Shown one piece after another: positions 6,917 to 21,280 of a DNA stretch of 64,000 nucleotides. Every line of letters starts with the position of its first letter. The first letter of the stretch is position 1. The position numbers and the translations under genes are program-made. The stretch comes from Thermoplasmatota archaeon (lineage in GTDB: Archaea > Thermoplasmatota > E2 > DHVEG-1). Location: NCBI GenBank assembly GCA_029939595.1, contig JAOZSQ010000001.1, forward strand, positions 347,669 through 411,668. Direction: 5' to 3'. Under the pieces are notes generated by a model. It had not been told where the DNA came from, did not search any database, and was given only the letters and a program-made list of their open reading frames with translations.

Positions 6917-7588
6917 ATGATAGTACCAACATTTCTTAAAGAGGATATGGATTTTCATGTAATGGAAAATCTAATTCTTGAAAAAGATGTAACGGGTGGA
7001 AAAATTAAGAATTATTTCATTAAAGGACCTTTTTTAGAAGCAAATATTAAGAACAAGAATGATAGGATCTATCCATTTCCAGTGTTAGAAAGAGAAGTTG
7101 ATGAATTCAATAAATCCAAAATAGCAACCAAAAGTGCTGTTGGTGAATTGGGTCATCCCGATTCTGTTCAAATAAATGAGGAGAGAATTTCACATTTAAT
7201 TACAGAGTTGTCTTTTGTTGACAAAAATATTTGTGTAGGAAAAGCATTAATAGGTAATACGCCTATGGGAAAGATAGCAAAGAGTTTGCTTGATATGGGT
7301 GTTAGAATGGGTGTTAGTTCCAGAGGATTAGGTACTTTGAAAGAAGGAGTAGTTCAAAATGATTATAAACTTAAAACTGTAGATTGTGTAGCAGAGCCAT
7401 CAGCACCCAATGCTTGGGTTGAAGGTATTATGGAATCTAAGAAGGATTGGGTTTATGAGAATGGTCTTTTGACAGAGAAAGAAATTGAAACTTTTGAAAA
7501 AAAGTTAGATACGTATACTGTTGAAGATAGGCAAACTGCTATTTTAAGAGTTTTTGACGAAGTTTTAAATACAGTTGCTAAAAAATAG
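6917..7588 (+). CDS. Prohead core protease (T4 gp21-like)
   Basis: 223 aa, located between the portal and scaffold genes. GELGHPDS segment. Size and position match T4 gp21. Confidence 0.6.
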   Translation: MIVPTFLKEDMDFHVMENLILEKDVTGGKIKNYFIKGPFLEANIKNKNDRIYPFPVLEREVDEFNKSKIATKSAVGELGHPDSVQINEERISHLITELSFVDKNICVGKALIGNTPMGKIAKSLLDMGVRMGVSSRGLGTLKEGVVQNDYKLKTVDCVAEPSAPNAWVEGIMESKKDWVYENGLLTEKEIETFEKKLDTYTVEDRQTAILRVFDEVLNTVAKK

Positions 7589-7713
7589 GGGTAAATTTAA
7601 CCTCTTAAAGATAACAGGAAAGTGTTATTAATCACTTAATAATACTGCAATTTTTAACAAAATAAATAAATACATATAATTAAATAAATTAATTTTTATA
7701 GGAGACAAATATT

Positions 7714-8472
7714 ATGGATGAATTAGTAAAGTTACTTCAAAAGATGCTGAAGCTTAATGAGGATGTTATTACTGAGGAGTTTAAAACAAAACTTTCAACA
7801 ATCCTTGAAGCGAAAATCAACGAAAAGGTTGAAGAAAAGAAAAAGGAGTTCCAAGAAGAGATTGAGAAGACAAAACAAGATGAACTTGAACTTTATAAAG
7901 AAGAGTTAGTTGATTCTTTAGATGAGTATTTAAGTTTAAGTGCTGAAGAGTATGCAAAAGACAATAAAAAGAATTTTGCAAACGCTAAGATGGTTAGAGA
8001 AGCTAAACAAATCAGAGAACAGTTTCAGGAGTTTGTCAAGAATTTCGGTTTCCAACTTTCTGAAGAAAAGCTTGAGCAAGATGACAAGTATAAAGAACTT
8101 GAAGAAAAATATAATAAAGCTGTGAATGAAAAGCTTGAATCAGAAAAGCTCATCAAAAAAATGCAAAAGTCTAAAAAAATTGAAGAAAAAGGAAGTGAAT
8201 TGAAAACTGAATCAGAAAAAGAGAAGTTTGCTAATTTGGCAGGATCTCTCCTTTTTGAAACGGAAGAAGAGTTTGATAAGAAGTTGACTAGTCTTGCCGA
8301 AGTTGTGAAAGGTGAAAAAGAAGACGAAAACAAAGATGGTAAAAAAGTTCCTTTGACTGAAAAAGAGAAGGTAGACGGTGTTCAGCCTCCTCAACCTGTA
8401 GTTAAGCACACAGACGCTATGCAAAACTATATGCATACTTTGAAAGATTTAGGCGAAACAAAAAGTATGTAA
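7714..8472 (+). CDS. Prohead scaffold/core protein (T4 gp22-like)
   Basis: 252 aa, strongly Glu/Lys-rich with predicted coiled coil; directly upstream of the major capsid gene. Confidence 0.55.
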   Translation: MDELVKLLQKMLKLNEDVITEEFKTKLSTILEAKINEKVEEKKKEFQEEIEKTKQDELELYKEELVDSLDEYLSLSAEEYAKDNKKNFANAKMVREAKQIREQFQEFVKNFGFQLSEEKLEQDDKYKELEEKYNKAVNEKLESEKLIKKMQKSKKIEEKGSELKTESEKEKFANLAGSLLFETEEEFDKKLTSLAEVVKGEKEDENKDGKKVPLTEKEKVDGVQPPQPVVKHTDAMQNYMHTLKDLGETKSM

Positions 8473-8531
8473 TAAACATACAAACTTTAAATTAACAATT
8501 TAATAACAAATTTTACTGGAGAAAATAAATT

Positions 8532-10151
8532 ATGGATGGAAAAGAATTACTTAAAAAATGGAGTGGATTAATAAATGATGATAATGCAAAACCCATCAAA
8601 CCAGCATCAAGAGAAGCTGCTGCTCTTATTTTAGAAAGTCAAGAAAAATATCATGTAGAATCACAAGGAACCACAACTACTGATATGATTAATTTTACAA
8701 AAATTATGGTTCCAGTTGCAAGAAGAATTTTCCCACAATTATTAGCTAATAATGTTGTAGGTATTCAGCCAACTAATAGATCAACCGGTCATGCTTATGC
8801 ATTGAGATATTCATATGCTGGTGTTCAACAACCAGGAATGCCTGGGGTTGACAGATCTGCTGCTAATGCAGATACCGCAGGTATGGGTGAGATCAACGCT
8901 ATTGAAGATCTTGAAAGAGTTCAAAGACAACCTTCTGGCGACAGAAAGAAAGGACCTTGGCCTCCAACCAATAAAGGTGAAGTTATCAATCCAGGTGGAT
9001 TTAAAATGCCAACAAATCAACCAGATTTTAGAGGTATTGCTATTATCTTGGATCAAGCCATTACTGGTGAAGATGAATTCAAAGTTGGTGCAGAACTTAA
9101 AACCAATGAAGCCACTCCTGTTACACTCGGTACAATTATGTATAGAGAAGAAAACAAGTGTTTGGTTAATTTGGCAGAAGGTAAGAAAATGTCTGATGTT
9201 GCAGGAAGTAAAGATGGTGTAGTAAACGCTGTTAAAGTTGGCGCATTTGCTGATGCTGTACCTGTTCAATATTTGACAAACAATGAAGCTGGTTATGACA
9301 TTATCTTTAAGTATTATTCAGGTAATCCTGATGCTGAAGGTGGATGGTATACAACTCAACAAGGTGAGATGCTAGGAACTCCTGGTTATCCGATGAAAGA
9401 AATGAAATTCAGCCTTGAGAGAAAAGCTTATGAAACCAAATCAAGAAAGTTAAAAGCTCGTTATACACAAGAACTTGCAACTGACTTGCAAAATGAATTC
9501 AATATTAACGCTGAAACTCAATTGATCAACATTTTGGAATACGAAATTGTTGCTGAGATTGATAGAGACTTGGTTGATTGTATCAACGGTTGTGCAACTA
9601 AGACAACTGGATGGTGGTATGATAAAACTAAAGTATCAGCAGGAACAGGTGTTGGTGCCGATGGTAGATGGGAAGCTGAGAAGATGAGAGTTATGTACAC
9701 AAAAATCATCAAGGAAGCCAACTTTATCCAGAAGACAACCCGAAGAGGTTCAGCTAACATTATTATCGCTTCAACAAATGTTGTAACCGCTCTTCAAAAC
9801 TTGAGAAACTTCATGCCTTGGAGTCTTGACTCTAACATGGATGCAAACTCAGGTGGTGTAACTCGTGTAGGAACACTTGATAACAGATTTGCAGTTTACA
9901 TGGATTCATGGACATTTGAAGATTATGTAACCTTGGCTTATAAAGGTGCAGATAATTTTGATACTGGTATTGTATATTGCCCATATGTAATGTTGACATT
10001 GCACAAAGCAGTTGATTCCGAATCATTTCAACCTGTTATTGGTTTCTCAACCAGAGCAGCTATTGTTGATAATATTTGGGGCGCACAGCAATATTACAGA
10101 ACCTTTGGAATTGATTTTTCAGGTTCATCATTAGAAGGTGTTTTATATTAA
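8532..10151 (+). CDS. Major capsid protein (T4 gp23 family)
   Basis: 539 aa. The N-terminal region matches the remembered T4 gp23 sequence (for example VGIQPTNRSTGHAYALRYSYAG against VGVQPMNSPTGQVFALRAVYG). A propeptide with LILE and HVE sites precedes the mature domain. Confidence 0.9.
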   Translation: MDGKELLKKWSGLINDDNAKPIKPASREAAALILESQEKYHVESQGTTTTDMINFTKIMVPVARRIFPQLLANNVVGIQPTNRSTGHAYALRYSYAGVQQPGMPGVDRSAANADTAGMGEINAIEDLERVQRQPSGDRKKGPWPPTNKGEVINPGGFKMPTNQPDFRGIAIILDQAITGEDEFKVGAELKTNEATPVTLGTIMYREENKCLVNLAEGKKMSDVAGSKDGVVNAVKVGAFADAVPVQYLTNNEAGYDIIFKYYSGNPDAEGGWYTTQQGEMLGTPGYPMKEMKFSLERKAYETKSRKLKARYTQELATDLQNEFNINAETQLINILEYEIVAEIDRDLVDCINGCATKTTGWWYDKTKVSAGTGVGADGRWEAEKMRVMYTKIIKEANFIQKTTRRGSANIIIASTNVVTALQNLRNFMPWSLDSNMDANSGGVTRVGTLDNRFAVYMDSWTFEDYVTLAYKGADNFDTGIVYCPYVMLTLHKAVDSESFQPVIGFSTRAAIVDNIWGAQQYYRTFGIDFSGSSLEGVLY

Positions 10152-10164
10152 TAGATGTTAAACT

Positions 10165-10184
10165 ATTGGGTGGTGACACCCAAT
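10165..10184 (+). terminator. Perfect hairpin directly after the major capsid gene
   Basis: attgggtg-gtga-cacccaat gives an 8-bp stem and 4-nt loop. It is the only GC-rich element in the spacer; no T-run follows. Confidence 0.3.
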
Positions 10185-10203
10185 AAACATTTTAATAGGA
10201 GAC

Positions 10204-10437
10204 TTGAAAATGAATTTAAACAGATTTTGTTATCCGACTGAGGCTGGTGCGTGGAGATGTTATCAAACGCACCGATCAAGATTAGAGCCTCGGATTAAGG
10301 ATAAAAATTTACTATCAAACAGAGGCAATGAACTCAATGTAAAAAGAGAGATTGCTGGAATGAAGGAAAGATTGACTCAGAGAATGGATGGCCAAGTAAG
10401 AGTTCGTTCTGCGAATGCTTATGGTGAGGATTTATGA
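10204..10437 (+). CDS. Hypothetical small protein
   Basis: 77 aa; preceded by TAGGAGA. Confidence 0.25.
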   Translation: MKMNLNRFCYPTEAGAWRCYQTHRSRLEPRIKDKNLLSNRGNELNVKREIAGMKERLTQRMDGQVRVRSANAYGEDL

Positions 10438-10673
10438 AAAAGACAATAAAACGGATGTTTGGTAATCTGCAACAAAGCCATTATTTGAGACAAATGGGAA
10501 AAAATAACTATAAGGGCTGTGTATCAGATGCCAAGTTTTATTTGGCTGATTGTAAACGTAAATGGAAAGGTGATCCTTCATTTGATTGTAAAGGTGATTA
10601 TAAAGAAGCAATGAAAGTTTGTAAGCAACGTAAAAAGCTACATCCAGATGAATTGGGTCGTACATATGGTTAA
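10434..10673 (+). CDS. Small Cys-rich basic protein (first gene of the internal-protein-like array)
   Basis: 79 aa with 5 Cys in CxxxC-like spacing; Lys-rich. Confidence 0.35.
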   Translation: MKKTIKRMFGNLQQSHYLRQMGKNNYKGCVSDAKFYLADCKRKWKGDPSFDCKGDYKEAMKVCKQRKKLHPDELGRTYG

Positions 10674-10682
10674 TGAGGATTT

Positions 10683-11159
10683 ATGATCAATAGGCGACTG
10701 TTTGAGAAGAAAAAAGAACCCTCTAAAAGTGCATTTGGGGTTTGTATAGAGAAGTGCGGCATTGAAATGAGTTCGCAGAAAGCTCTTGGTGTAGGCAAAA
10801 AGGCTTGGACCGAGATGGAAAAACCACCAGGAAATGATGCTGCAAGTGTCATTGGATCTATGGCTGCGAATGGAAAAGGTGCTGGTAATTTCAAAAATCC
10901 AATGTGTATACGAGGGTGCTTTAAATATAAGACAGCCGATGATGATAATAAGATAAAGGAAGCAAGAACACAGGCACAAAAAATTGTGGATACTGTCCAA
11001 GTAAGGAATGTACAAGGAAGCGACATAGGTAAAGGTCAACCTCCGGCTGCTGGTGCGGCTCCCGCTAAATCTGTCAAAGCACAGAAATGTAAAGGACAGG
11101 GAGGTACTTGGAGAGGATTTGGAGGATGTGTAAACGCTCAAGGTAAAAAAATGTTTTAG
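10683..11159 (+). CDS. Internal-protein-like small basic protein
   Basis: Leader MINRRLFE|KKK carries the (L/I)xE motif. C-terminal KCKGQGGTWRGFGGCV. Confidence 0.4.
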   Translation: MINRRLFEKKKEPSKSAFGVCIEKCGIEMSSQKALGVGKKAWTEMEKPPGNDAASVIGSMAANGKGAGNFKNPMCIRGCFKYKTADDDNKIKEARTQAQKIVDTVQVRNVQGSDIGKGQPPAAGAAPAKSVKAQKCKGQGGTWRGFGGCVNAQGKKMF

Positions 11160-11168
11160 GAGAACATT

Positions 11169-11354
11169 ATGATTACAAAAAACTCAAGATTACAAAATGA
11201 AGGTCTCAAAAGTGCTGTTAAAGGTATGGGAAGAGACATCGCAGCATTCAGTGAATGCAAAAAGGTTGATTGTAAAGACAAAAAAGGACACGCAAAACAG
11301 CTTTGTATAGCCGATTGTGTTCAAAAGAAAGCGGCTGGAAGTATTGATACATAG
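11169..11354 (+). CDS. Internal-protein-like small protein
   Basis: 61 aa; leader MITKNSRLQNEG; Cys pairs; upstream TAGGAGA RBS. Confidence 0.35.
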   Translation: MITKNSRLQNEGLKSAVKGMGRDIAAFSECKKVDCKDKKGHAKQLCIADCVQKKAAGSIDT

Positions 11355-11425
11355 AAGCCAAAATATTAAACTAATTTATAAAAGAAAAAAATATACCATT
11401 TAATCTATTCAAATGAGGATTAGAT

Positions 11426-11710
11426 ATGATTAGTAGAAAATCAATGTACATGACTGAAAAATACGGTGTTGGTGCTACAATAGGAATTGCAGCAGGTGGC
11501 ATGAAAAATAAAGCTAAAGAAGCTTTTGATAAACATAAAGGAAAACTTACAGGTAAAAAAGCAAAGATCGCAGGTGGTGCATTAGCAGGTGGTGCAGCAA
11601 TAGCAGGTGGTGCAGCAATAGCTAAAAAACTCAAAAAAAGAAAATGTTTGAAAAGATGCGATACAATGAAAGGCAAGAAAAAAAGCGGATGCGTAAGAAT
11701 GTGTAAATAA
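11426..11710 (+). CDS. Internal-protein-like Gly/Ala-rich basic protein
   Basis: MISRKSMYMTEKYG leader, (AGG)n hydrophobic segment. Its C-terminal 30 aa (KKLKKRKCLKRC.TMKGKKKSGCVRMCK) is identical to that of the next gene. Confidence 0.45.
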   Translation: MISRKSMYMTEKYGVGATIGIAAGGMKNKAKEAFDKHKGKLTGKKAKIAGGALAGGAAIAGGAAIAKKLKKRKCLKRCDTMKGKKKSGCVRMCK

Positions 11711-11741
11711 AAACTTATTTTTAAAATTATGGAGAATAACT

Positions 11742-12098
11742 ATGATTAGTATGCAAAGAGTTCAAAGAGTTCAAAGAGTTCAAAGAGTACCATTGGTTTT
11801 AAAAGAAGCCGGTATATTTGATCCTGCTCCTGGTGAAAAAACCGGTGGTGCATTAAAAAAATTAAGGAAGGCTGCTGATGCAGCAACAGGTTCAACTACA
11901 AGTAATCGTGTAAAAGAGGCTGGAAAAGGCAAGCATGGAACAAAATTGAAGGTTGCAGGAGCAGCAGTAGCAGGAGCAGCAGTAGTTGGTGCTGGAATGG
12001 CTATTAAAAAGAAATTGAAAAAGAGAAAGTGTCTGAAAAGATGTGCAACAATGAAAGGCAAGAAAAAAAGCGGTTGTGTAAGAATGTGTAAAAAATAA
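11742..12098 (+). CDS. Internal-protein-like Gly/Ala-rich basic protein (paralog of 11426)
   Basis: MISMQ(RVQ)4...LVLKE|AG leader; same Cys-rich tail as 11426. Confidence 0.45.
   Translation: MISMQRVQRVQRVQRVPLVLKEAGIFDPAPGEKTGGALKKLRKAADAATGSTTSNRVKEAGKGKHGTKLKVAGAAVAGAAVVGAGMAIKKKLKKRKCLKRCATMKGKKKSGCVRMCKK
11754..11789 (+). repeat. 9-bp tandem repeat, four copies (caaagagtt), encoding (QRV)4
   Basis: caaagagtt caaagagtt caaagagtt caaagagta read directly from the sequence; the unit preserves reading frame. Confidence 0.8.
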
Positions 12099-12110
12099 TC
12101 AAGGATTATT

Positions 12111-12368
12111 ATGATAGTTAGACAACATTTGAAAGAAGGTGTTGACATCTCACAATTGAGATCTTGTATTGAGGATTTTCCTCAAGGTAGAGGGGATCGT
12201 GGATTTGATGCTTGTATGAGAGGTGGACCGCCTGAGATTGATTATTCTAGGCATATGACACAAAGGCAAAAATCTATAAATGATTGCCAATCCGATGCAC
12301 GAGCGGCATGTGGAGGAAAGAAAACTTGTATAGTTGCTTATATCAATGATTGTATTACCAATAAGTGA
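12111..12368 (+). CDS. Internal-protein-like Cys-rich small protein
   Basis: MIVRQHLKE|GV leader; 6 Cys. Confidence 0.35.
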   Translation: MIVRQHLKEGVDISQLRSCIEDFPQGRGDRGFDACMRGGPPEIDYSRHMTQRQKSINDCQSDARAACGGKKTCIVAYINDCITNK

Positions 12369-12595
12369 CAATGAGAAGAGATTGTAGTTCCATAGATAAC
12401 CAAAATATGAAAGTTCGTTGTTGTGTTAATTATTGTGGTAAAAACAATCTCAGTAACACCCAACGGAGTACAGGTAAATCTTGTTTAGCTACATGTATGG
12501 ATAAAGGTCGTCCTTTAGATATAGACAGATCACGATCTGTGGGTTTTAGATCAGGAAATTATGCTGATGATATTGCCCATTTAATGAGAAGATAA
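12365..12595 (+). CDS. Small Cys-rich protein
   Basis: 76 aa, 8 Cys (CC.NYCG...C..C); ATGA overlap with the upstream gene. Confidence 0.3.
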   Translation: MTMRRDCSSIDNQNMKVRCCVNYCGKNNLSNTQRSTGKSCLATCMDKGRPLDIDRSRSVGFRSGNYADDIAHLMRR

Positions 12596-12610
12596 ATTTA
12601 GGAGAAAAAT

Positions 12611-12886
12611 ATGATTTCACGAAAAGGTTGTATTACAGAAAAACACTTTGCAAGAAAAGCTGTTGGTGCTCTTATTGGTGGTGCAGCCGGTGCCGCAGTA
12701 GGTAGTAAAGTTAAGAATGCCAAGGGTAAAGGTCATAAGAAAACTGGTGCTATTGCTGGAGCAGTTGCAGGATGGCAAGGAGCCGGTGCAGCTAGTAAAG
12801 CAGTAGATTGTGCAAAAAAACGTAAGAAAATGTGTGCTGGTAAAAAAGGACCTGCTTTGGAAAAATGTAAAGCTAGAGCTTGTTAA
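12611..12886 (+). CDS. Internal-protein-like Gly/Ala-rich basic protein
   Basis: MISRKGCITE|KH leader; GGAAGAAVG and AGAVAGWQGAGAAS segments; Cys-rich Lys tail. Confidence 0.45.
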   Translation: MISRKGCITEKHFARKAVGALIGGAAGAAVGSKVKNAKGKGHKKTGAIAGAVAGWQGAGAASKAVDCAKKRKKMCAGKKGPALEKCKARAC

Positions 12887-12895
12887 GGAGATATT

Positions 12896-13207
12896 ATGAT
12901 CTCAAGACTTACAGAAAAACATGAAGGTAAAAAACTTCTTGGTATGCTTGGTGGTGCTTATGCTGGTGCTAAAGCGGCTTCTGCTGCTACCAATAAATAT
13001 GGTAAACCACAAACCGGTATAGAAGGTATGTCAAGAGATATAAGAAATAGTTCTCTAGGTGCATTGGCTGGAGGTTTTGCTGGTTATCAAGGTGGTAAGA
13101 AAATTGGTAAAGTAATGGATGCAAAATGTAGGAAAAAAAGAAAGAAAGCATGTGGCAAGATATCCAAATCTAAAAGAAAAGATTGTTATAAATCGGTTAA
13201 ATGTTAG
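12896..13207 (+). CDS. Internal-protein-like Gly/Ala-rich basic protein
   Basis: MISRLTE|KH leader; stop codon embedded in TAGGAGG. Confidence 0.45.
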   Translation: MISRLTEKHEGKKLLGMLGGAYAGAKAASAATNKYGKPQTGIEGMSRDIRNSSLGALAGGFAGYQGGKKIGKVMDAKCRKKRKKACGKISKSKRKDCYKSVKC

Positions 13208-13214
13208 GAGGATT

Positions 13215-13508
13215 ATGATTTCAAGACAATATATTACAGAAAAACATTTTTTTAAAAAACTTGGTGGAGCCATTGTTGGTGGTGCTGCTGGCGGAACTGC
13301 TGGTAGAATAGCATCTGGTAATAAAAATGCGCCAAGTGCTGCTGGTGCTGTTGGAACCATAGCTGGTGCTGTAGCTGGTTGGAAAGGTGGAAAAGCAATA
13401 GGCAAGCATTTAGATTGTAAAAAGAAAAAAGATAAAGCTTGTAAAAAATTTAAAGGAACACCGAAGTATAAAACGTGTGCGGATAAAATTGCATGTCCAG
13501 GTAAATAG
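13215..13508 (+). CDS. Internal-protein-like Gly/Ala-rich basic protein (start corrected from the ORF-track 13119)
   Basis: MISRQYITE|KH leader with the RBS taggaggattATG; GGAAGGTAG...AGAVAGWKGGKAIGK; CKKKKDKACKKF...C tail. Confidence 0.45.
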   Translation: MISRQYITEKHFFKKLGGAIVGGAAGGTAGRIASGNKNAPSAAGAVGTIAGAVAGWKGGKAIGKHLDCKKKKDKACKKFKGTPKYKTCADKIACPGK

Positions 13509-13515
13509 GAGAGTT

Positions 13516-13809
13516 ATGATTTCAAGACAATATATTACGGAAAGACATACGGGTAAAAAAGTAGCTGGTGCCGTTGCTGGTTTTTTTGGTGGTGGAATAG
13601 CTGCTGATGCTGCTGCTAATGCTGCTGGATTAAAAGGTAATAAGTTTTCAGCAGCTAAACTTACTGGATATATCGGTGGTGCTGCTGCTGGTTGGAAAGG
13701 TGGCAAAAAACTTGGTAAAATGTCAGATTGTAGAAAAAAGAAGAAAAAAGAATGTGGCAAGCTATCAGGCGATGCAAAAGCCAAATGTCTTAAAAGTGTT
13801 AAATGTTAG
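13516..13809 (+). CDS. Internal-protein-like Gly/Ala-rich basic protein (close paralog of 13215; start corrected)
   Basis: MISRQYITE|RH leader; AAAGWKGGKKLGK; RBS taggagagttATG. Confidence 0.45.
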   Translation: MISRQYITERHTGKKVAGAVAGFFGGGIAADAAANAAGLKGNKFSAAKLTGYIGGAAAGWKGGKKLGKMSDCRKKKKKECGKLSGDAKAKCLKSVKC

Positions 13810-13818
13810 GAGGATATT

Positions 13819-14064
13819 ATGATAAGTAGAATGCCATCTCTTTTATCATTATTTGAAAAAACCAAAATCATTAAAAAGTGTGCTAACAAAGATAAAGTTA
13901 GACTCGGAGATACATGTGTTTCCAAAAAAGACAAAAGAGTTATTAAAAAGGCGAAAGCCAGTAAGAAATGGGCTAAAGAACATGGAGTAAGTGTTGCTAA
14001 GTCCAGAGCGAAAAGCAAGAAAAATAAAGGAAAAACTAAAACTAGAATTGTTAAAGTTAAATAG
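13819..14064 (+). CDS. Internal-protein-like Lys-rich protein
   Basis: MISRMPSLLSLFE|KTK leader; C...C pair; very basic. Confidence 0.4.
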   Translation: MISRMPSLLSLFEKTKIIKKCANKDKVRLGDTCVSKKDKRVIKKAKASKKWAKEHGVSVAKSRAKSKKNKGKTKTRIVKVK

Positions 14065-14074
14065 GAGAATACAA

Positions 14075-14377
14075 ATGATTAATAGATTACCAGTTCCAAT
14101 ACGAGCACAATCTATAACCAGACAATTAGTGGCAGAAACATCAATGTCAGAAACACTAATGGAAGGTAAAAAACTTATTGTACCTTGTAAGGGTAATAAA
14201 GTTAAAGTCGGTGGAAAATGTTTGAAAAAATCTGATCATAAAGTTGTGAAGATGAAAAAGAAAGCCAAAATAAGTAATAAAAAGAATAAAAGAGGAAGAG
14301 AATTATCTGTGAAGAAGTATAACAAAAGAAAAGCTCAAGGTAAAGTAAGAACCAAAAAAGGGAAAGCTATGAATTAG
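14075..14377 (+). CDS. Internal-protein-like Lys-rich protein (start corrected from 13991)
   Basis: MINRLPVP...TLME|GKK leader; RBS ataggagaatacaaATG; C..C pair. Confidence 0.4.
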   Translation: MINRLPVPIRAQSITRQLVAETSMSETLMEGKKLIVPCKGNKVKVGGKCLKKSDHKVVKMKKKAKISNKKNKRGRELSVKKYNKRKAQGKVRTKKGKAMN

Positions 14378-14386
14378 GAGACTGCT

Positions 14387-14623
14387 ATGATTTCAAGACA
14401 ATATTCAAGATCAATGTTAATTGAGAAGAAAGGAGTAGCTTGTAAGGATGTTTGTAAAGGCAATAAAGATCCTAAATGTATTACAAAGTGTAGAGCCAAA
14501 AAAGTATTAACAGGTAAAAATGTTGGTACTAAAGGTAAATTGGCTAGTCTTGCTGGTGGAATTGCTCTTGGTGGAGCAGCTATAGCAGCACGTAAGCATT
14601 TTAAAAATAAAAAACAGGCATAG
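14387..14623 (+). CDS. Internal-protein-like protein
   Basis: MISRQYSRSMLIE|KKG leader; Cys cluster followed by a GGIALGGAAIAA hydrophobic segment. Confidence 0.4.
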   Translation: MISRQYSRSMLIEKKGVACKDVCKGNKDPKCITKCRAKKVLTGKNVGTKGKLASLAGGIALGGAAIAARKHFKNKKQA

Positions 14624-14625
14624 CA

Positions 14626-14918
14626 ATGATATCAAGAATGCCAATTTTATTGGAAGCCAAACGGTTAACAACAGTATCAAAGAGTCAGTTTAACAAGAAT
14701 GTTAAACTGTCTCAAAAATCTTCTGTTAAAAGAAAGAAAGCAAAGGCTAATGTGTTATATGCAAAATAAAATAAAACAAAGCTTAAAGCAGCAAAAAGAA
14801 TAAAAGATAGGTGTACTGATGGCGTGGGTCCAAATAAAAAGTGTGTTGTGCAAGGTGGCAAAATGAAAAAGATTGCATCCAATGTAGTGGTTAGAAACGT
14901 AAATACCAAGAAAAAGTG
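14626..14918 (+). pseudogene. Internal-protein-like paralog interrupted by an in-frame TAA at 14767
   Basis: MISRMPILLE|AKR leader. The frame continues after the TAA into CTDGVGPNKKCVVQGG, which matches the C-x9-C motif of neighbouring paralogs. Confidence 0.35.
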
Positions 14919-15179
14919 ATGATTATAGAAAAACTTAGTCCGGCTCAACGTCTAATCCCAACAGGAAAAAGACGAAATATGCAAAGAACTAAGGCAACTA
15001 TGCAGGTTAAAACATCTGTTTATAATGATCAGTATTATAAAACTAAGAAGAAGAAAATATCCACAAAACGGGCAAGGAAGCGTTTGATTTGTCCAGCCAA
15101 CAAAAAAGCAATCACTAATCCAAAAACTGGTGTCATTACTTGTGTGAATTTACATAAAGTAGCTAGAAAGGTATATTAG
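14919..15179 (+). CDS. Internal-protein-like basic protein
   Basis: MIIE|KLSP leader; Lys/Arg-rich. Confidence 0.35.
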   Translation: MIIEKLSPAQRLIPTGKRRNMQRTKATMQVKTSVYNDQYYKTKKKKISTKRARKRLICPANKKAITNPKTGVITCVNLHKVARKVY

Positions 15180-15186
15180 GAGTGTT

Positions 15187-15627
15187 ATGATTCACAGAAA
15201 AAGAGTATTAAAGGAAGCCACTTTTGATTATGACGATTGGGAAAAGTCAAGTAGAACTGGTGGTATGGGATCTAATAGATCAGGTTATAATAGGAATTCA
15301 CCACCAGGAGATGACAAATTATCAAAGTTTTTAGATTTGTTTAAATATGGTGTTTCTAATCAGGATGCTCTTGCTAAATTGGGTGATAGAACATCAAAGA
15401 TGTTCAGAACCAAGAAACAAAAAGAAAGGGATGGTAGTCAAGAAACTGAAATGAAGTTGAAAGACTGTTTTCAGGCATCCCATAAGGATTGTATACAGTT
15501 TGCAGAACGCAATGGGAAAATAGAAGATTATCAAAAGTGCTACGATTTATCTACTGCTAATTGTATAGGCAGATTTGATAAGAAATTAAGTAAGCATTAT
15601 TTGAAAAAAGCGAAATCTTTAAGATAG
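15187..15627 (+). CDS. Internal-protein-like protein
   Basis: MIHRKRVLKE|AT leader; 146 aa; RBS ttaggagtgttATG. Confidence 0.4.
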   Translation: MIHRKRVLKEATFDYDDWEKSSRTGGMGSNRSGYNRNSPPGDDKLSKFLDLFKYGVSNQDALAKLGDRTSKMFRTKKQKERDGSQETEMKLKDCFQASHKDCIQFAERNGKIEDYQKCYDLSTANCIGRFDKKLSKHYLKKAKSLR

Positions 15628-15633
15628 GATACT

Positions 15634-15948
15634 ATGATACGGTTAAATGAGAAATACAAGAAATCCATTGCCGGACCGAAGGGTTCTGCAAAGGGTATGA
15701 AAGCTAACATTACTAAAGAATTTAATAGAGCGTATGTTGCACAGGCTGAAATAGAAAGAAAAAATTGTAAAACGACAGTTGATAAAAACTATAAATGTTG
15801 TAAAAAACTTGCTGGTGGTAAGGAAGATACTAAATTTTGTGATTATGCTTATAAAAGAGTAAAAATGTCTTGTGCAGGTGCAATTAAGAAGGGTGAAGGA
15901 GCAAAGATGGGTTTTAATCCAACTAATTTTTGTAGTAAAAAAAAATAA
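15634..15948 (+). CDS. Internal-protein-like Cys-rich basic protein
   Basis: MIRLNE|KYKK leader; 7 Cys. Confidence 0.4.
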   Translation: MIRLNEKYKKSIAGPKGSAKGMKANITKEFNRAYVAQAEIERKNCKTTVDKNYKCCKKLAGGKEDTKFCDYAYKRVKMSCAGAIKKGEGAKMGFNPTNFCSKKK

Positions 15949-16037
15949 AGATATTTTATCAATTCTTAACAGTAAGTAAGTATTTGGATAATACAATATT
16001 ATAAAGCAAAAGCAAAATCATTAAGATAGGAGATATT

Positions 16038-16520
16038 ATGATTATATTAAACGAGAGAGGAACTAAATTGGGGATGGCTCAAGCCAGGGGAGCTAAAGAG
16101 GTCCTGTCTATGAAAAGAGCAGGCAAACTTACCAAAAGTGGGCGTGGAGGACTTCGTATAAGGAAATCCGATGCCAATGAACTTAAACTGATGAAAAAAG
16201 CTATTAAGGCAGAAGAAAAGTATAAGGATTTTAGATCAAAAGGTAAACGTGGTATGACTCAGATTGGAAACAATCAGTGTTTTTGTCAGGATCGTGGTGA
16301 TGGTTCGGGAACCATTTGTTATGTAAGAACCAATAAAGGTAATGTTAAACCTTCTAATGGTAAAAAATGTACACCTAAATTAGCTGCTAAACATGCGTTG
16401 GCAAGAGAACGTGGTGGGCAAAAAGCAAAGAGTTCTGAACATAATAGACGACAGGCACTTGGTTCATTAGGTGGATTAGGAAAAGCAGCGAAGTCAATGT
16501 GGCCAAAAGGCATAAATTAG
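16038..16520 (+). CDS. Internal-protein-like basic protein
   Basis: MIILNE|RGTK leader; RBS taggagatattATG. Confidence 0.4.
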   Translation: MIILNERGTKLGMAQARGAKEVLSMKRAGKLTKSGRGGLRIRKSDANELKLMKKAIKAEEKYKDFRSKGKRGMTQIGNNQCFCQDRGDGSGTICYVRTNKGNVKPSNGKKCTPKLAAKHALARERGGQKAKSSEHNRRQALGSLGGLGKAAKSMWPKGIN

Positions 16521-16527
16521 AGGTGTT

Positions 16528-17220
16528 ATGATACACAGAAAACCACAGAGAAGATTAAATGAGGGAGTTTCTAAAGATGCTTTGGATACTGGCGCAAAAG
16601 GTGTTGCTGGTGCGTTTAAAGATCCTGAAGGATTTGAGAAATTCCAAAATAATGTTCGTAGATGGATGGGTAAGCAAGCCAGAAAAAATGTGGATATGGA
16701 TGAGTTAGTAAGATATACTAACAAATGCATGGCTTACAAAGACAATGTTTGTGTTGATAGATATATGGGTAAAGAAGGAAGTGCAATGAATTCTGCTCCA
16801 ACTTTTAGAGGAGATGGAAAAATGGCATCAGCAAAGCTTCCAAAATCACAGGCTGATTTAAAGGGATATTGGAAGTGCAAGAAAGAACTCACTAAAGGTT
16901 GTTTGGATACCGCAGATAAAAGTTTGGCACTTCAAGATAAAATAGATGCAAGAAGACCCAAAAGTTGTAAAGATAAGTGTAAAACTAAGTATAATACTTC
17001 TCAAGAGATAAAAAAATGTAAACGTGGATGTACAGCCAAGTCCATAGGAAAAGGCGTTGCAATTGGTGCTGGAATAGCGGCAACTGGAGCAGGTATTATG
17101 TATGGTAAACAAGGCATTTCTAGTGTGAAGAAGGCTGGTAGTAAGTATATGAAAGGAATTAAAAATGCACTTAGCGGAAAAGATAAGTCAACCAGTTCTA
17201 TTATATTAAGTAAAAGGTAA
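16528..17220 (+). CDS. Internal-protein-like protein with a C-terminal Gly/Ala hydrophobic segment
   Basis: MIHRKPQRRLNE|GVS leader; the ...CKDKCKTKYNTSQEIKKCKRGCTAKSIGKGVAIGAGIAATGAGI region is paralogous to the tail of 17227. Confidence 0.4.
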   Translation: MIHRKPQRRLNEGVSKDALDTGAKGVAGAFKDPEGFEKFQNNVRRWMGKQARKNVDMDELVRYTNKCMAYKDNVCVDRYMGKEGSAMNSAPTFRGDGKMASAKLPKSQADLKGYWKCKKELTKGCLDTADKSLALQDKIDARRPKSCKDKCKTKYNTSQEIKKCKRGCTAKSIGKGVAIGAGIAATGAGIMYGKQGISSVKKAGSKYMKGIKNALSGKDKSTSSIILSKR

Positions 17221-17226
17221 GATAAT

Positions 17227-18099
17227 ATGATACATCAATCACGAAAACCGATTAGACAAAATAGAGTGGGTTGTTCACCTGTTAGACGACAGCGTTTGTT
17301 TGAAGAAGATTTAATTGAAGTGAGGAATTGGAGAAAGTATTCAAAAATGGAAAATGAAGAAAAATCCTCTAAAAAATCAACTCAAACGGATGAACAAGGT
17401 AATAAACTCAGAAAAGATGGTAAACGATTTGAACCAAGAGGATCGTCAGTAGCAGCACAACGACAAGCGACCTCTGGTATTGCTGCTATCTTTAACAACC
17501 CAGGAAAGTTTGATAGGTTCATGGGTAATATCAGAAAGCAAGTTAGTAGAATAGCCAGAACCAATGCTGAATATGATGAGATAATTAACAGTTTAGAGGA
17601 TTGTCAAAATTATAAAGATTTGATGTGTGTTGATAGGCATATGGGTGGTAGAATTGGTGATATTTTGAATGATCCAGTATCCACAGGAGCAATGCTTAGA
17701 GGTACACCCGCTAAAGGTAAAAAGCGTGATAAGGAAGAAACTGATAAAACATATAGAGAACCTGATTTGGCGGGATATGAAAAGTGTAGAGAAGTTCAAG
17801 TCAAGGCTTGTACTGATAATATGTTGAAAAGTTTAAAAGCTAGAAAGAAAATAAGTAAATTGCGTCCAAAAAGCTGCAAAGATAAGTGTAAGAAAGAATA
17901 TAAATCACAACCCGATTTGATGAAAGTATGTAACCGCAGATGTACAACTAAAGCAATTGGTAAAAGTGCTGCGTTTGGTGCTGGTGCAGCTTTGGCTGGT
18001 GCGGGTATTTATTATGGTACAAAATTTGGAGCATCTGGTATAAAGTCCAGATTAGAAAAAGCGGCTAGTCGTATGGCTGGTAGATTTACCCAAAAATAG
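17227..18099 (+). CDS. Internal-protein-like protein (largest array member, paralog of 16528)
   Basis: MIHQSRKP...RLFE|EDLIE|V leader; shares the CKDKCKKEY...CNRRCTTKAIGKSAAFGAGAALAGAGI tail with 16528. Confidence 0.4.
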   Translation: MIHQSRKPIRQNRVGCSPVRRQRLFEEDLIEVRNWRKYSKMENEEKSSKKSTQTDEQGNKLRKDGKRFEPRGSSVAAQRQATSGIAAIFNNPGKFDRFMGNIRKQVSRIARTNAEYDEIINSLEDCQNYKDLMCVDRHMGGRIGDILNDPVSTGAMLRGTPAKGKKRDKEETDKTYREPDLAGYEKCREVQVKACTDNMLKSLKARKKISKLRPKSCKDKCKKEYKSQPDLMKVCNRRCTTKAIGKSAAFGAGAALAGAGIYYGTKFGASGIKSRLEKAASRMAGRFTQK

Positions 18100-18101
18100 T
18101 C

Positions 18102-18269
18102 ATGCTACAAGAAAAGCGTAGATATTTAGTAAGGAAAGTATTTAAAAAACATTATAATAAGAAAGTAGAATGTGATCCATCAGAAAGGTTTGAAAAAGAA
18201 CCTTTCTGTTTGGATATGGGTAAGGTTTTTGATGAAAAAACTTGTGAATGTAAGAAACCCAAAAAATAA
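18102..18269 (+). CDS. Small Cys-containing array member (shorter than the ORF-track cutoff)
   Basis: Translation MLQE|KRRYLVRKVFKKHYNKKVECDPSERFEKEPFCLDMGKVFDEKTCECKKPKK; last gene of the plus-strand run. Confidence 0.3.
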   Translation: MLQEKRRYLVRKVFKKHYNKKVECDPSERFEKEPFCLDMGKVFDEKTCECKKPKK

Positions 18270-18506
18270 TTATTGATTAAAAAACTCTTGTTGATCCTTT
18301 CCACTCGGTTCAGATACTACTTCTTTCGCCTTTTTCCATTCTTCAGCAAACTCCGCAACAGCAAAGTCAGCTATTTTGTCAGCAAATAAATGGCCATTAA
18401 TAGTTATCAAATCTTCTTCTTTATATAGTTCAGTATACATTAACGCTTGATAAACAGATTGATATATCTGTTTTTTAGCTGTTTTTATATTTGAAAATAT
18501 TTCCAT
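18270..18506 (-). CDS. Hypothetical small acidic protein
   Basis: 78 aa; first gene of the minus-strand block. Confidence 0.3.
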   Translation of the reverse strand: MEIFSNIKTAKKQIYQSVYQALMYTELYKEEDLITINGHLFADKIADFAVAEFAEEWKKAKEVVSEPSGKDQQEFFNQ

Positions 18507-18523
18507 GATTCCTCCTATTTCTT

Positions 18524-18982
18524 TTATTTAGCTTCTGAAACCTGTTTATTATTGTTATTATTATGATGTTGTTTTGGTTTTCTTGGTTTATAATATCTTT
18601 TTTGGTTTCTTTTTAATGGAGGAGTATTTTTCAAATTGTCCTTTTTTGGATCGCTAACCGGTGTTAGCATTCTTCTTTTTTCTTCTTTAGGAATATGAGG
18701 TTGTATTGTTTGAAACGTATCTTTGTCTATGATGCGTTTTACAATTTTCATAGATTTCCAAGTTTTCCTATTTATTTCAATTATTTCTCTGGTGATTATT
18801 TGATCAATCACATTTTCCGCTTCTGCTTGTGAAACACAATCAATAGGGTTATCTGTGGTTGTGTCTTTCATAAAGGTCCATGTAGGCCAAATCCAGAATT
18901 TCCAATGTTTGCGTTGAATACGAAACAATGAACCGTTGGTTACTACACGAAACTTAAATTTATATTTTTTTAAAAAATTCAT
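18524..18982 (-). CDS. Hypothetical basic protein
   Basis: 152 aa; Trp-rich N-terminus and Lys/Asn-rich tail; overlaps the rnlA stop. Confidence 0.3.
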   Translation of the reverse strand: MNFLKKYKFKFRVVTNGSLFRIQRKHWKFWIWPTWTFMKDTTTDNPIDCVSQAEAENVIDQIITREIIEINRKTWKSMKIVKRIIDKDTFQTIQPHIPKEEKRRMLTPVSDPKKDNLKNTPPLKRNQKRYYKPRKPKQHHNNNNNKQVSEAK

Positions 18983-20124
18983 ATTTCAAATCCTTGTCTT
19001 TTGAGAAATGCCCTTGCTTCCTGTAAATGATATGTTTGTCTTAAAATTCGCCTGATTATAGTTTTACAAATTCCATCGGATGTGGGGTCTTTTAAAGACT
19101 CCATGATAGTTGGGAATAATTGACTATTTTTAAATACATTTACAAAATCTTTGCGAGATTTGTATTTGTTGTAAGTACATACTATTTTTTCAACTTCTTT
19201 CATTGTTTTGTTTATGTAATCTGAAAGAAATTTTGATAGGCGTTGAGCATTTATTTTCCGTTCATCATCATTCGGAATTTTAAGTAGGGCATCGTCTATT
19301 TGATTGTTTAATATCAAGTTAATGAGGGTATTTTCTCGCATCAAATCTTGAGTTAGAAGGTGATGCCGTTCATGATACCATTTTGTTTTTAATTTTATCT
19401 GTTTGCCATTTTTAAATGTGACAACGTAACCCTCATATTTTTCATCCGTCTCACACTTATTTATTAAATTATCTAGGTTTGTTATAGGAAAATCTTCGGT
19501 TGCCTCAATTTTACAAAATTTGATGAAATTTTGAAGGGTTTCATCAACATTATAATCAATGTATTTTCCAGATCGGTTGCATCTTATCTGAATTAATTTT
19601 AAAGATTCTTCGGGGTAATTAATAACAATCTGATTTTTTTTGCTTACATATTCAAAAAAAGGAAAGAACCAAAGTTGTTGACAGATATTTAAAAATTTTT
19701 CTAGTCTAGGATTGTTTTCTAAAATTTCCTGAGACAGTTTTGCTTGGTCACTAAAAAACGATGATATCGTTTTGGCATGAAAATGGCTTTTAAATGGAAT
19801 GAATTGAATTAGCGACCCATCCATCTTGTTTTGAATTCTTTTGATTTCTACCCCCCTTAAAACGTCATATTGAGTATCAATATTCTCATTTAGGTTAAAA
19901 AACTTTTTAAGGGCTAAATATCGGTTCGGTTCTTTTTTGTCAAAAACGAATGTAATACCTCTTAATTCCTTTGCTTCGGGGTGTTTAACGAAAAAGTTAT
20001 ATTCTGGAGCCAGCATATATTTGAAAATGTGGATTTTGGTTTCATTTATGAATTCTTCTTTTAATATAAAAGATGGATTTTTTTTAGTTATATCCAGGCA
20101 TTCTTGATAGGTTGGTAATCCCAT
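18979..20124 (-). CDS. rnlA: RNA ligase 1 (T4 RnlA family)
   Basis: 381 aa. Nucleotidyltransferase motif I KMDGSL with Lys at position 100 (T4 Rnl1 has K99). KELRGITF and KKFFNLNEN match the remembered T4 Rnl1 ECRGIMFE and EKFFNLNEN. Confidence 0.8.
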   Translation of the reverse strand: MGLPTYQECLDITKKNPSFILKEEFINETKIHIFKYMLAPEYNFFVKHPEAKELRGITFVFDKKEPNRYLALKKFFNLNENIDTQYDVLRGVEIKRIQNKMDGSLIQFIPFKSHFHAKTISSFFSDQAKLSQEILENNPRLEKFLNICQQLWFFPFFEYVSKKNQIVINYPEESLKLIQIRCNRSGKYIDYNVDETLQNFIKFCKIEATEDFPITNLDNLINKCETDEKYEGYVVTFKNGKQIKLKTKWYHERHHLLTQDLMRENTLINLILNNQIDDALLKIPNDDERKINAQRLSKFLSDYINKTMKEVEKIVCTYNKYKSRKDFVNVFKNSQLFPTIMESLKDPTSDGICKTIIRRILRQTYHLQEARAFLKRQGFEI

Positions 20125-20161
20125 GTTATTTTTTTAAGATAAATATTTAAGTAACCCATTT

Positions 20162-21280
20162 TTGGAGATTGTTATGAGAAAGATACTATGTTACTTTACG
20201 TTTATGATTTTGTCTATATCCATTATTTATGCTGGTGAATTTGATCCTATGTTAAATGGTGGTAAAAAGTGGAGAATTGGCTATATTGAAGGCGGGGAAT
20301 GGCCATCCTATCAAGAAACTTTTAGATATATGATTAAGCATCTAATAAAATATAATTGAATTAGAGGAGAGTTACCAAAATTTAAAGAAAAATCCAATAT
20401 TAAACCGGTTTGGACGTGGTTATTTAATAGAAGTAAATATTTAGAATTTGTGCCAGAAGCATATTGGACCTCTAATTGGGATAAGAATGAGAGACGAAAA
20501 AATTCTGTATCGGCACTTCGCTATTTGAAAAGAAATAAATTGGATTTGATGTTTGCATTTGGGACGTGGGCTGGTCAGGATATGGCTTTTGGAGATCATT
20601 CAATTCCAACTCTAATCATGTCAGTACGAGATCCAATTAGAGCGGGGTTAGTTAATACCAATGCTGATACAACCTATGATCATATTCATACTCGTGTTGA
20701 TATTGGACGACAAACCAGACATGTTGAATTGTTTCATTCTATTTTAGAATTTAAAAAAATGGGAATGGCGTTTGAATATTCAGAAGATGGTAGATTATAT
20801 TCAGGTTATGAACCTGTTAAGAAATTGTCTGTATCACTTGGATTTGAATTGGTGACTTGTAATGCTATTGACAACAATTGTACTAAGCAAGAAGCATATA
20901 AAGCACTAAAGAAGTGTTATGGTGAGCTAATTGCAAAAAATATTGATGTTTTATATTTGACTATTCATCGTGGTAAGACTTTGGAGACTTTGCCAAAATT
21001 ATTGAAAAATATTAAAATACCCACATACACTCAACCAAACAAACAGGCGTTTAAAGAAGTAAAATTAGGTGTCTTGTTTTCTATGTCTCAACAGTCTGCT
21101 GAAAACATGGCTCTTTTTCATACAAAAGCCATGATTAAGGTATTGAATGGTTCTGTGCCTTCTAAATTAAGTATGACATTTGTTGATCCATTGAAAATTA
21201 TTGTCAATACAAATACTGCAAGAATGATAAAATATAAGATACCGGATGATATCTTAGATATGGCGGATATTGTCTATTAG
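20162..21280 (+). pseudogene. Secreted ABC-transporter substrate-binding protein (ABC_sub_bind-like) interrupted by an in-frame TGA at 20357-20359
   Basis: A signal-peptide ORF (20162..20359) and 20450..21280 lie in the same frame, separated by a single TGA. AFGTWAGQ...IPTLIMSVRDPIRAGLV matches the AIGTPAAQ...IPIVFSAVTDPVGAGLV pattern of that family. Confidence 0.5.

Follow-up and report, generated by a model that had tools for sequence, protein, structure and literature searches.

A tandem array of small lysine- and cysteine-rich genes behind the capsid gene of a T4-like jumbo phage: candidate internal head proteins with a putative prohead-protease leader

Introduction

In a 64,000-nucleotide stretch of contig JAOZSQ010000001.1 (positions 347,669 to 411,668; hereafter the window), the major capsid protein (MCP) gene of a T4-like phage is directly followed by 23 plus-strand open reading frames (ORFs) of 47–290 amino acids (aa), which together cover about 8 kb (10210-18269). 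The window belongs to a contig of 426,929 bp, and the phage is described as a 427-kb T4-like jumbo or giant phage; the MCP of the window is identical to the database entry P0001, which is carried on that contig. The question raised by this locus is what an array of small, mostly leader-bearing proteins does immediately behind a capsid gene.

A possible answer comes from T4, in which the prohead protease gp21 cuts after L/I-x-E, and propeptides of 10–19 aa, the capsid-targeting sequences (CTS), direct the internal proteins (Ips) to the scaffolding core (PMC9026906). A T4 head holds ~1000 Ip molecules, the Lys residues of which contact the DNA (PMC3012670). Ip1–3 have only the leader in common, and the three block different GmrSD variants (PMC12373910); Ip content is hypervariable and lineage-specific (PMC12373910, PMC3012670). 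A first-pass annotation of the window had proposed that the array carries T4-type capsid-targeting and prohead-protease leaders on an enlarged set of internal proteins. The core of this idea was backed by our in silico tests, namely the presence of an S77 protease, the distribution of the N-terminal tag, the statistics of the [LI]xE motif and the parity of Cys residues. The further equation of the leader with a T-even CTS was not borne out, as only the terminal I-x-E is in common with the T4 Ip sequences that we fetched. We put at about 0.6 the probability that the array arose by expansion, specific to this lineage, of T4-Ip-like internal head proteins, which would be targeted and trimmed via an N-terminal propeptide, kept with the DNA and ejected at infection.

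Results

The array proteins have a common N-terminal leader

All statistics refer to 24 proteins, which are the products of the 23 array ORFs and of an outlying 49-aa ORF at 4330, with the 69 other ORFs of the window as background. Individual ORFs are named by their first position (Table 1). The leader signature was defined as a first Glu within 35 residues, preceded at position −2 by L, I, V or M and without an earlier Asp. This signature was found in 20 of the 24 proteins (19 array proteins and the 4330 product), versus 10 of the 69 background ORFs (Fisher p=1.7e-9), and a start with “MI” was similarly enriched (20/24 versus 9/69, p=6e-10). When each paralogue family was counted once, the tag was present in ~10 of 13 independent lineages. 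The statement of the first-pass annotation that nearly every protein bears the leader thus applies to 20 of 24: 10434 and 12371 have none, and 11169 (LQNE) and 10210 (PTE) are atypical. Its inclusion of the distant 4330 ORF proved sound, because MISKLAE/SS (the slash marks the predicted cut) fits the signature.

The consensus of the leader is M-I-(S/N/H)-R...(L/I/V/M)-x-E, free of acidic residues before the Glu. Its length ranges from 4 aa (MIIE, MLQE) to 26 aa (17227), and every leader ends in hydrophobic-x-Glu; the residue that follows is K (10 proteins), A (3), G (2) or R (2). Mature parts that are not homologous to each other have only the leader in common. The codons for MISR vary synonymously (ATT, ATC or ATA for Ile, TCA or AGT for Ser, AGA or CGA for Arg), indicating that conservation and selection act at the level of the peptide rather than of the DNA. 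In 11742, the predicted propeptide includes (QRV)x4, encoded by a 9-bp unit in perfect tandem repetition at 11754-11788 (CAAAGAGTT x3.9), which suggests that the leader tolerates changes in length.

The leader is tied to the head module and its protease

The plus strand from 1 to 18.3 kb of the window constitutes a T4-type head module in Pfam and PHROG searches. As the first-pass annotation had stated, head genes lie directly upstream of the array, and Pfam assigned them to Portal_T4, Peptidase_S77, T4_CASP and Gp23. The protease aligned with T4 gp21 (5JBL; E=1.9e-16), and the catalytic residues, the His of GELGHP and the Ser of GVSSRGLG, were conserved. The N-terminus of the protease itself, MIVPTFLKE/D, is the same tag as that of the array and nearly matches the MIVRQHLKE/G of 12111. 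We scanned the 64 kb for a combined signature, consisting of a Shine–Dalgarno (SD) sequence, an ATGAT start and a first Glu in the context hydrophobic-x-Glu. Seventeen genes were detected in the head module (15 array genes, 4330 and the protease gene) and only two unrelated ORFs outside it, indicating that the tag is a property of the head module.

The occurrence of [LI]xE motifs was then compared with expectation. The scaffold contains 13 versus 6.5 expected, and the ORF at the core position (6390-6905) contains 9 versus 3.1. In the predicted mature parts of the 20 leader-bearing proteins (~1,950 aa), 3 were found versus 5.7 expected, and two of these three lie directly behind the first site (14075, 17227). 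The MCP carries ALILE/S at residue 35, in its N-terminal region. The motif is thus distributed as expected for protease substrates versus survivors, and the tag is tied, statistically and by position, to the head module and the protease.

The predicted mature parts are lysine-rich and have paired cysteines

With the leaders removed where predicted, the 24 proteins comprise 2,341 aa, including 437 K, 143 R, 111 D and 81 E (net charge +388). Lys is well above Arg, and the individual net charges range from +1 to +29. Cys accounts for 4.2% of residues versus 1.2% in the other ORFs of the window. After removal of the predicted propeptide, the Cys count was even in all 23 Cys-containing proteins; in the two with an odd total (12611 and 17227), the extra Cys lies within the predicted propeptide. 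Among the other ORFs of the window, 21 had an even and 33 an odd count. In most members the Cys residues form symmetric CXnC...CXnC pairs, with spacings such as 3-10-3, 3-7-3, 3-12-3, 7-15-7 and 10-11-10. AlphaFold models of two proteins both placed a helix-turn-helix across the Cys pairs (best local pLDDT, the per-residue confidence score, 64–84; overall 57 and 44). We read the mature proteins as small helical hairpins that two disulfides or a metal would cross-brace, and metal binding would be the likelier of the two if the host is anaerobic.

All-against-all BLASTP resolved only three small paralogue groups and singletons. Family A (11426, 11742, 12611, 12896, 13215 and 13516, with 14387 in permuted order) has two Gly/Ala-zipper helices. 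Family B (16528 and 17227) combines twin CX7C and twin CX3C motifs with a Gly zipper at the C-terminus. The family C-like proteins (13819, 14075, 14626 and 14919) are extremely Lys-rich and have a single Cys loop each, in 14626 only by read-through of a TAA codon. Outside these groups, the products of 4330 (GGTWEGFSGCV) and 10683 (encoded at 11100-11159), 6 kb apart, have the C-terminal motif C..GGTW.GF.GCV in common, with 9 of 11 residues identical.

The Gly/Ala segments described earlier as glycine-zipper-like are present, whereas the Pfam glycine-zipper matches were all below threshold: PF05433 scored 19.7 (12611), 18.4 (13215) and 18.0 (12896) bits against a gathering threshold of 24.2 (E=8e-4 to 3e-3). 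NF053611 (YiaD) scored 19.6 bits against a cut-off of 175 (E=6e-4), and the 15634 protein gave a weak, sub-threshold match to COX6B (CHCH; E=0.075). Sec, lipoprotein and double-glycine signal peptides were considered for the leaders and rejected, as the leaders are too short and their hydrophobic cores weak or absent.

The array consists of real genes and old paralogues

The array had been delimited as about 23 proteins at 10434-18269. That interval holds 22 ORFs, and the 23rd, at 10210-10437, had been overlooked, so that the array begins with this gene, the stop of which overlaps the start of 10434 (ATGA). Each leader and Cys/Lys string quoted by the first-pass annotation was present where it had been placed. 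Most intergenic gaps are 2–15 nt, or stop and start codons overlap, and TAGGAG or AGGAG (SD) precedes nearly every start. By codon usage learned from the other large genes of the phage, the annotated frame scored best for 24 of 24 ORFs, the same gene set was predicted by an independent gene caller in a Logan assembly of this phage, and the GC skew of the array agreed with that of the head genes. The paralogue pairs are 39–53% identical in aa sequence, with synonymous divergence (dS) of 0.6–1.5 and ratios of nonsynonymous to synonymous divergence (dN/dS) of 0.37–0.9; they keep the Cys and motif positions yet differ at many synonymous sites. As a whole, the frame scores, SD sites, gene calls, GC skew and paralogue divergence indicate that these are real genes and old paralogues. 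The description of three pairs (11426/11742, 13215/13516 and 16528/17227) as recent duplicates must therefore be revised, recent duplication being ruled out by the dS values.

In 14626, the in-frame continuation past the TAA at 14767-14769 encodes a CX9C loop, as is typical of the neighbouring genes, and its final TGATG overlaps the next gene. From its sequence, 14626-14919 would be either a broken gene with a fresh pseudogene lesion or a gene expressed by stop read-through. Scanning for sigma-70 promoters and terminators and searching for the T4 late promoter (TATAAATA) inside the array yielded nothing informative. The hairpin between the capsid gene and the array (10153-10192) is a possible attenuator, which would lower expression of the array relative to that of the capsid protein.

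Table 1. Head-module and array features in window coordinates; a slash marks the predicted cleavage site
Position	Strand	Product or feature	Predicted leader	Remarks
2965-3450	+	gp4-like head closure protein		PHROG
3887-4333	+	gp2-like DNA end protector		PHROG
4330-4479	+	49-aa basic ORF	MISKLAE/SS	Outlying set member, between gp2-like and portal genes
4490-6235	+	Portal_T4 portal		Pfam
6390-6905	+	Acidic 171-aa ORF, gp67/68 (prohead core) position	N-terminus MKEKITE/L	Presumed protease substrate
6917-7588	+	Prohead protease, Peptidase_S77, T4 gp21-like		Pfam, E=2.8e-25
7714-8472	+	Scaffold, T4_CASP, gp22-like		Rich in [LI]xE; Pfam, E=1e-20
8532-10151	+	MCP, gp23 family (Gp23)		Pfam, E=1.5e-81
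10153-10192	+	Stable hairpin, then T-rich run		Just 3′ of capsid gene stop; dG -16.8 kcal/mol, z=-3.9
10210-10437	+	First array gene, 75 aa, Arg-rich	MNLNRFCYPTE/A (atypical)	2 Cys; SD TAGGAG, Logan call, best frame
10434-10673	+	79-aa basic ORF	none	Twin CX10C (Cys spacings 10, 11, 10)
10683-11159	+	158-aa ORF	MINRRLFE/KKK	6 Cys (two CX3C pairs and CX12C)
11169-11354	+	61-aa ORF	MITKNSRLQNE/G (atypical, Leu at -3)	4 Cys (spacings 4, 10, 3)
11426-11710	+	Family A, 94 aa	MISRKSMYMTE/K	Gly/Ala zipper; Lys tail with CX3C-x10-CX3C
11742-12098	+	Family A, 118 aa	22 aa with (QRV)x4, ending LKE/A	
12111-12368	+	85-aa ORF	MIVRQHLKE/G	6 Cys including twin CX7C; leader near protease N-terminus
12365-12595	+	74-76-aa ORF	none	No Glu; 6 Cys; start GTG 12365 or ATG 12371, coupled to previous stop
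12611-12886	+	Family A, 91 aa	MISRKGCITE/KH	Fifth Cys in predicted propeptide
12896-13207	+	Family A, 103 aa	MISRLTE/KH	
13215-13508	+	Family A, 97 aa	MISRQYITE/KH	AlphaFold2: Cys tail helix-turn-helix, pLDDT 69-84
13516-13809	+	Family A, 97 aa	MISRQYITE/RH	
13819-14064	+	Family C, 81 aa	MISRMPSLLSLFE/KT	41% Lys+Arg; one CX11C pair
14075-14377	+	Family C, 100 aa	Long, three successive sites (VAE/, MSE/, LME/G)	One CX10C pair
14387-14623	+	78-aa ORF	MISRQYSRSMLIE/KK	Twin CX3C precedes the Gly zipper, a permuted order versus family A
14626-14919	+	47-aa ORF	MISRMPILLE/AK	In-frame TAA at 14767-14769
14919-15179	+	86-aa ORF	MIIE/KL	Lys-rich; C-terminal CX16C
15187-15627	+	146-aa ORF	MIHRKRVLKE/AT	Twin CX7C (spacings 7, 15, 7)
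15634-15948	+	104-aa ORF	MIRLNE/KY	6 Cys including CX9C and CX10C
16038-16520	+	160-aa ORF	MIILNE/RG	Net charge +29; 4 Cys
16528-17220	+	Family B, 230 aa	MIHRKPQRRLNE/G	8 conserved Cys (twin CX7C and twin CX3C); C-terminal Gly zipper
17227-18099	+	Family B, 290 aa	26 aa, ...RLFE/E then DLIE/V	Ninth Cys in predicted propeptide
18102-18269	+	Last array gene, 55 aa	MLQE/KR	4 Cys

Searches for relatives of the array and of the phage

Sequence and profile searches returned no relative of the array proteins outside the contig of this phage. The 17227 protein retrieved only itself from 5.8 billion clusters, a family B profile only the two query proteins from 1.84 billion representatives, and a family A profile only proteins of the same contig. 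No match to 15187 or 16038 was obtained by tblastn against 50,697 phage records. Pfam, PHROG and NCBIfam scans of the array identified no informative family, the matches to Gly-zipper, tape-measure low-complexity and COX6B models being sub-threshold; a match of 18102 to a 13-residue CXCXC repeat model, although above the low cut-off of that model, is trivial and uninformative. A 23-nt pattern of the leader DNA was not found in the metagenome and viral collections searched.

The only other contig found, a 21.8-kb Logan contig of run SRR21545386, is 100% identical to positions 3152-20803 of the window and therefore derives from the same phage. The best MCPs from isolates (the Campylobacter CP21 group and Vibrio phages) are ~30% identical and the best metagenomic MCP is 44% identical; MCP peptide patterns retrieved no close relative from IMG/VR, and an exact look-up of the MCP returned no record. 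Judged by these comparisons, the phage has only distant known relatives. A comparable array after gene 23 was not seen in five metagenomic T4-like contigs (L001, L004, L005, L006 and L009; MCPs 36–44% identical) or in Campylobacter phage CP21. In these six relatives gene 23 is followed by other genes or by genes on the opposite strand, and because none of them has the array at this position, we regard it as lineage-specific.

Two of these relatives have head modules with features of their own. In L001, the closest metagenomic relative (MCP 44% identical), the portal and protease genes are separated by collagen-repeat and YadA-stalk-like genes (4412-6578), and a 506-aa protein of no assigned family is encoded at the position of the array. 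In L005, the S77 prohead protease gene is apparently split or extended by an intein (7138-9189; PF14890, a 599-aa product beside a 76-aa S77 fragment).

Other features of the window

In the head module, the 6390-6905 ORF had no family match in the Pfam and PHROG scans. Among the ORFs flanking the array is one for an RnlA-like ligase. Further downstream, a minus-strand cluster at 22532-26445 encodes a fusion of cytidylyltransferase-like and NUDIX domains, a nicotinamide adenine dinucleotide (NAD) synthase and an NAPRTase; it may be a module that reconstitutes NAD against NAD-depleting defences. Also on the minus strand (30005-31726, 38152-41754 and 42115-43443) are genes for a Ser/Thr protein kinase and two hybrid histidine-kinase/response-regulator proteins, one with PAS domains; the same set includes an Endonuclease_1 protein with a signal peptide and a lamin-tail domain. 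The relative L009 likewise has hybrid kinase genes close to its head module. A periplasmic substrate-binding-like protein is encoded at 53176-53892, and its nearest genomic relatives (43–53% identical) are in metagenome-assembled genomes of Desulfobacterales/Deltaproteobacteria (L010–L012), which offers a weak clue to the host lineage. Four tandem paralogues of ~205–221 aa at 60791-63762 have the N-terminus MDLT..N(L/I)K...G.LLDKI.A.I in common and lie downstream of very large fibre-like ORFs (1349 and 483 aa); they may be exchangeable fibre-tip or chaperone cassettes.

Discussion

If the array does encode internal head proteins, its genes, as the 3′-terminal part of the late head operon, would be translated late with the head genes, as suggested by their strand, tight coupling and SD sites. 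By analogy with the T4 CTS, the acid-free propeptide of 4–26 aa would dock the proteins on the gp22-like prohead scaffolding core; in T4, an Asp at P1 prevents processing, yet targeting still occurs. The S77 protease would then cut after the Glu, mostly before Lys, and the same enzyme would destroy the [LI]xE-rich scaffold while leaving mature proteins of ~37–264 aa with almost no internal sites. These polycationic, Lys-rich proteins, with their CXnC-braced hairpins and, in some cases, Gly/Ala zippers, would stay in the head with the DNA and exit at infection. As to their role, we would favour first the charge neutralisation, coating or protection of a very large genome, both inside the capsid and during entry, because of the extreme charge and the genome size. 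Our second preference would be host-directed anti-defence effectors that diversify in an arms race, as for T4 Ip1–3; the T4 precedent speaks for such a role and for Lys–DNA contacts (PMC12373910; PMC3012670). In third place, the Gly zippers suggest that some members may insert into the envelope during genome delivery.

Several points weigh against this reading, which is drawn wholly from sequence and from a single genome: MCP and leader-DNA searches found no close relative of the phage, so that the array and its leader are known from one genome. Three or four array genes (among 10210, 10434, 11169 and 12371) lack a fitting leader. Beyond its I-x-E end, the leader has no similarity to the T-even CTS (MKTYQEFIAE), and the residue after the cut (P1′) is mostly Lys here and Ala in T4 Ips. 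We know of no characterised CTS as short as MIIE, MLQE, MIRLNE and MIILNE (4–6 residues). The fetched T4 Ips contain no Cys, unlike the array, and Cys-rich proteins are unusual in virions assembled in the cytoplasm. In addition, the [LI]xE deficit of the mature parts does not reach significance by itself (p=0.16), and the two AlphaFold models are of low overall confidence.

Alternatively, the shared N-terminus could reflect favoured translation initiation (AT-rich ATG-ATT-TCA-AGA behind a strong SD) and common ancestry or recombination of tandem duplicates, the products being late proteins that do not enter the virion; we consider this unlikely. The proteins might then be intracellular DNA-condensing or nucleoid-remodelling proteins, or small holin-like membrane proteins with two weakly hydrophobic helices and a highly basic C-terminus. 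Family A, with two Gly/Ala-rich helices (maximum KD19 0.9–1.7) followed by a very basic tail, would suit the latter, although most of the hydrophobic segments are below the usual transmembrane threshold. “MI” starts are indeed fairly common elsewhere in the genome (9/69), the junctions are partly conserved in DNA (a 19-nt identical start in three genes, as well as families D1, D3 and D10), and several leaders (4–6 aa) are too short for a conventional CTS. However, MISR is written with different synonymous codons for Ile, Ser and Arg (including TCA versus AGT for Ser), which points to selection on the peptide, and efficient translation does not explain why acid-free leaders of varied length, on non-homologous families, should all end in hydrophobic-x-Glu. 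Nor does it fit the presence of the same tag on the prohead protease, the concentration of the combined signature in the head module (17 versus two elsewhere in the window) or the Cys parity, which agrees with removal of the leader.

A short conserved leader in front of hypervariable Cys-rich cores also recalls exported cationic, Cys-stabilised peptides of the bacteriocin or antimicrobial-peptide type, or precursors of ribosomally synthesised and post-translationally modified peptides, the leaders of which would be cut by a dedicated exporter or protease and not by the prohead protease. Mini-proteins that fold oxidatively outside the cytoplasm typically have even Cys numbers and paired CXnC motifs, and glycine zippers, for which the Pfam matches here are sub-threshold, occur in membrane-active peptides. 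Such an origin is nevertheless quite improbable, considering that the scanned flanking ORFs (head genes, gp2-like, gp4-like, RnlA-like and unknowns) include no maturase, exporter or peptidase for such peptides, that the leaders show no Sec, Tat, lipobox or double-glycine features, that the cores are long (37–264 aa), and that the array lies within a late head operon, sharing its strand and coupled to it in translation. It is hardly conceivable that the ORFs are largely spurious, as chance products of low-complexity A/G-rich DNA downstream of the capsid gene. This composition does yield long antisense ORFs in the region as well, and no protein has a homologue outside this phage; against this, codon usage favours the annotated frame in 24 of 24 cases, a correctly spaced SD precedes nearly every start, stops and starts overlap, the paralogues keep their Cys and motif positions while differing synonymously, and the GC skew agrees with that of the head genes.

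Should the leader prove to be a working CTS and cleavage tag, a single phage would supply over 20 natural cargo proteins, together with a second CTS unrelated in sequence to that of the T-even phages. This would be useful for learning what a CTS requires and for engineering protein delivery in phages other than T-even phages. The hypervariable set of injected proteins for which the T4 Ips are the paradigm would then also exist in a remote T4-like jumbo lineage, where its chemistry would be very different. The Lys-rich, Cys-braced hairpins and Gly zippers would hint at tasks other than blocking restriction enzymes, for example envelope penetration, or the coating or condensation of very large genomes. 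Concrete predictions that are cheap to test would follow, namely exact mature N-termini, such as KHFFKK... for 13215, and even Cys pairing. A bolder proposal, which we advance only tentatively, is that more than 20 packaged polycationic twin-CXnC mini-proteins, some with glycine-zipper membrane-insertion helices, are loaded by a new propeptide (MISR...hydrophobic-x-E) and form an undescribed class of virion-delivered proteins that coat or condense the 427-kb genome and protect it or escort it through the envelope at entry. It is equally doubtful, though conceivable, that this class represents a protein-shield strategy unlike the nucleus of phiKZ-like jumbo phages or the enzyme-inhibitor Ips of T4.

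Among known systems outside T4, the phiKZ-like giants (phiKZ, 201phi2-1 and SPN3US) have many head-internal proteins, including paralogue families, which are trimmed after Glu by the gp21-related proteases gp175/gp245 (PMC9026906). Their propeptides can hold several successive sites (PMC9026906), as do 14075 and 17227 here. The phiKZ motif, on the other hand, is S/A-x-E (PMC9026906), whereas the residue at −2 here is L, I, V or M and the head module is of the T4 type (gp20/21/22/23). A comparison of the array proteins with PHROG families found no homology. The inner-body and ejection proteins of the phiKZ type are mostly large. Like family A, the glycine-zipper 2TM proteins (PF05433; outer-membrane lipoproteins of the SlyB/Pcp/YiaD type) have two Gly/Ala-rich GxxxG-type helices, but family A has no lipoprotein signal, its zipper is fused to a Lys/Cys tail, and its context is a phage head operon; a literature search on glycine-zipper ejection proteins found nothing. 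The Cys spacings resemble the twin CX9C of CHCH proteins, the twin CX3C of small Tim proteins and the CX3C-Xn-CX3C of plant alpha-hairpinins, a resemblance that we take to be one of pattern and not a homology result. No match to these three groups was significant (COX6B E=0.075), and organism and compartment differ.

The closest parallel is with the T-even Ips, which, like the array products, are small, mostly basic and mutually non-homologous proteins with a short propeptide ending in (L/I)-x-Glu. The leader of T4 IpI ends in ITE/A, and the tripeptide ITE also occurs in four array leaders; as in T4, an S77 protease of the gp21 type and a gp22-type scaffold are encoded by this phage. The leader itself, MI(S/N/H)R..., is unlike the T-even MKTYQEFIAE and MKTFKEF...ITE in that no acid precedes the site and P1′ is mostly Lys in place of Ala, and no homology of the mature parts to any known Ip was found with Pfam, PHROG and NCBIfam or among the 5.8 billion clusters and 1.84 billion representatives. 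The array thus appears to have the architecture of an Ip/CTS system while belonging to the T-even proteins by sequence in neither leader nor cargo. This phage has 20 leader-bearing genes, compared with three for T4 and “at least 10” for the T-evens taken together (PMC12373910). They form one contiguous array directly after gene 23, whereas the T4 Ips are encoded at two loci elsewhere in the genome. Mature net charges reach +29, compared with +2 to +9 for T4 Ips, and Cys, absent from the latter, makes up 4.2% of residues in paired CXnC motifs, with Gly zippers in some members. As far as sequence comparison can tell, the array is clearly unusual, and it differs from the T-even system in scale, location and chemistry.

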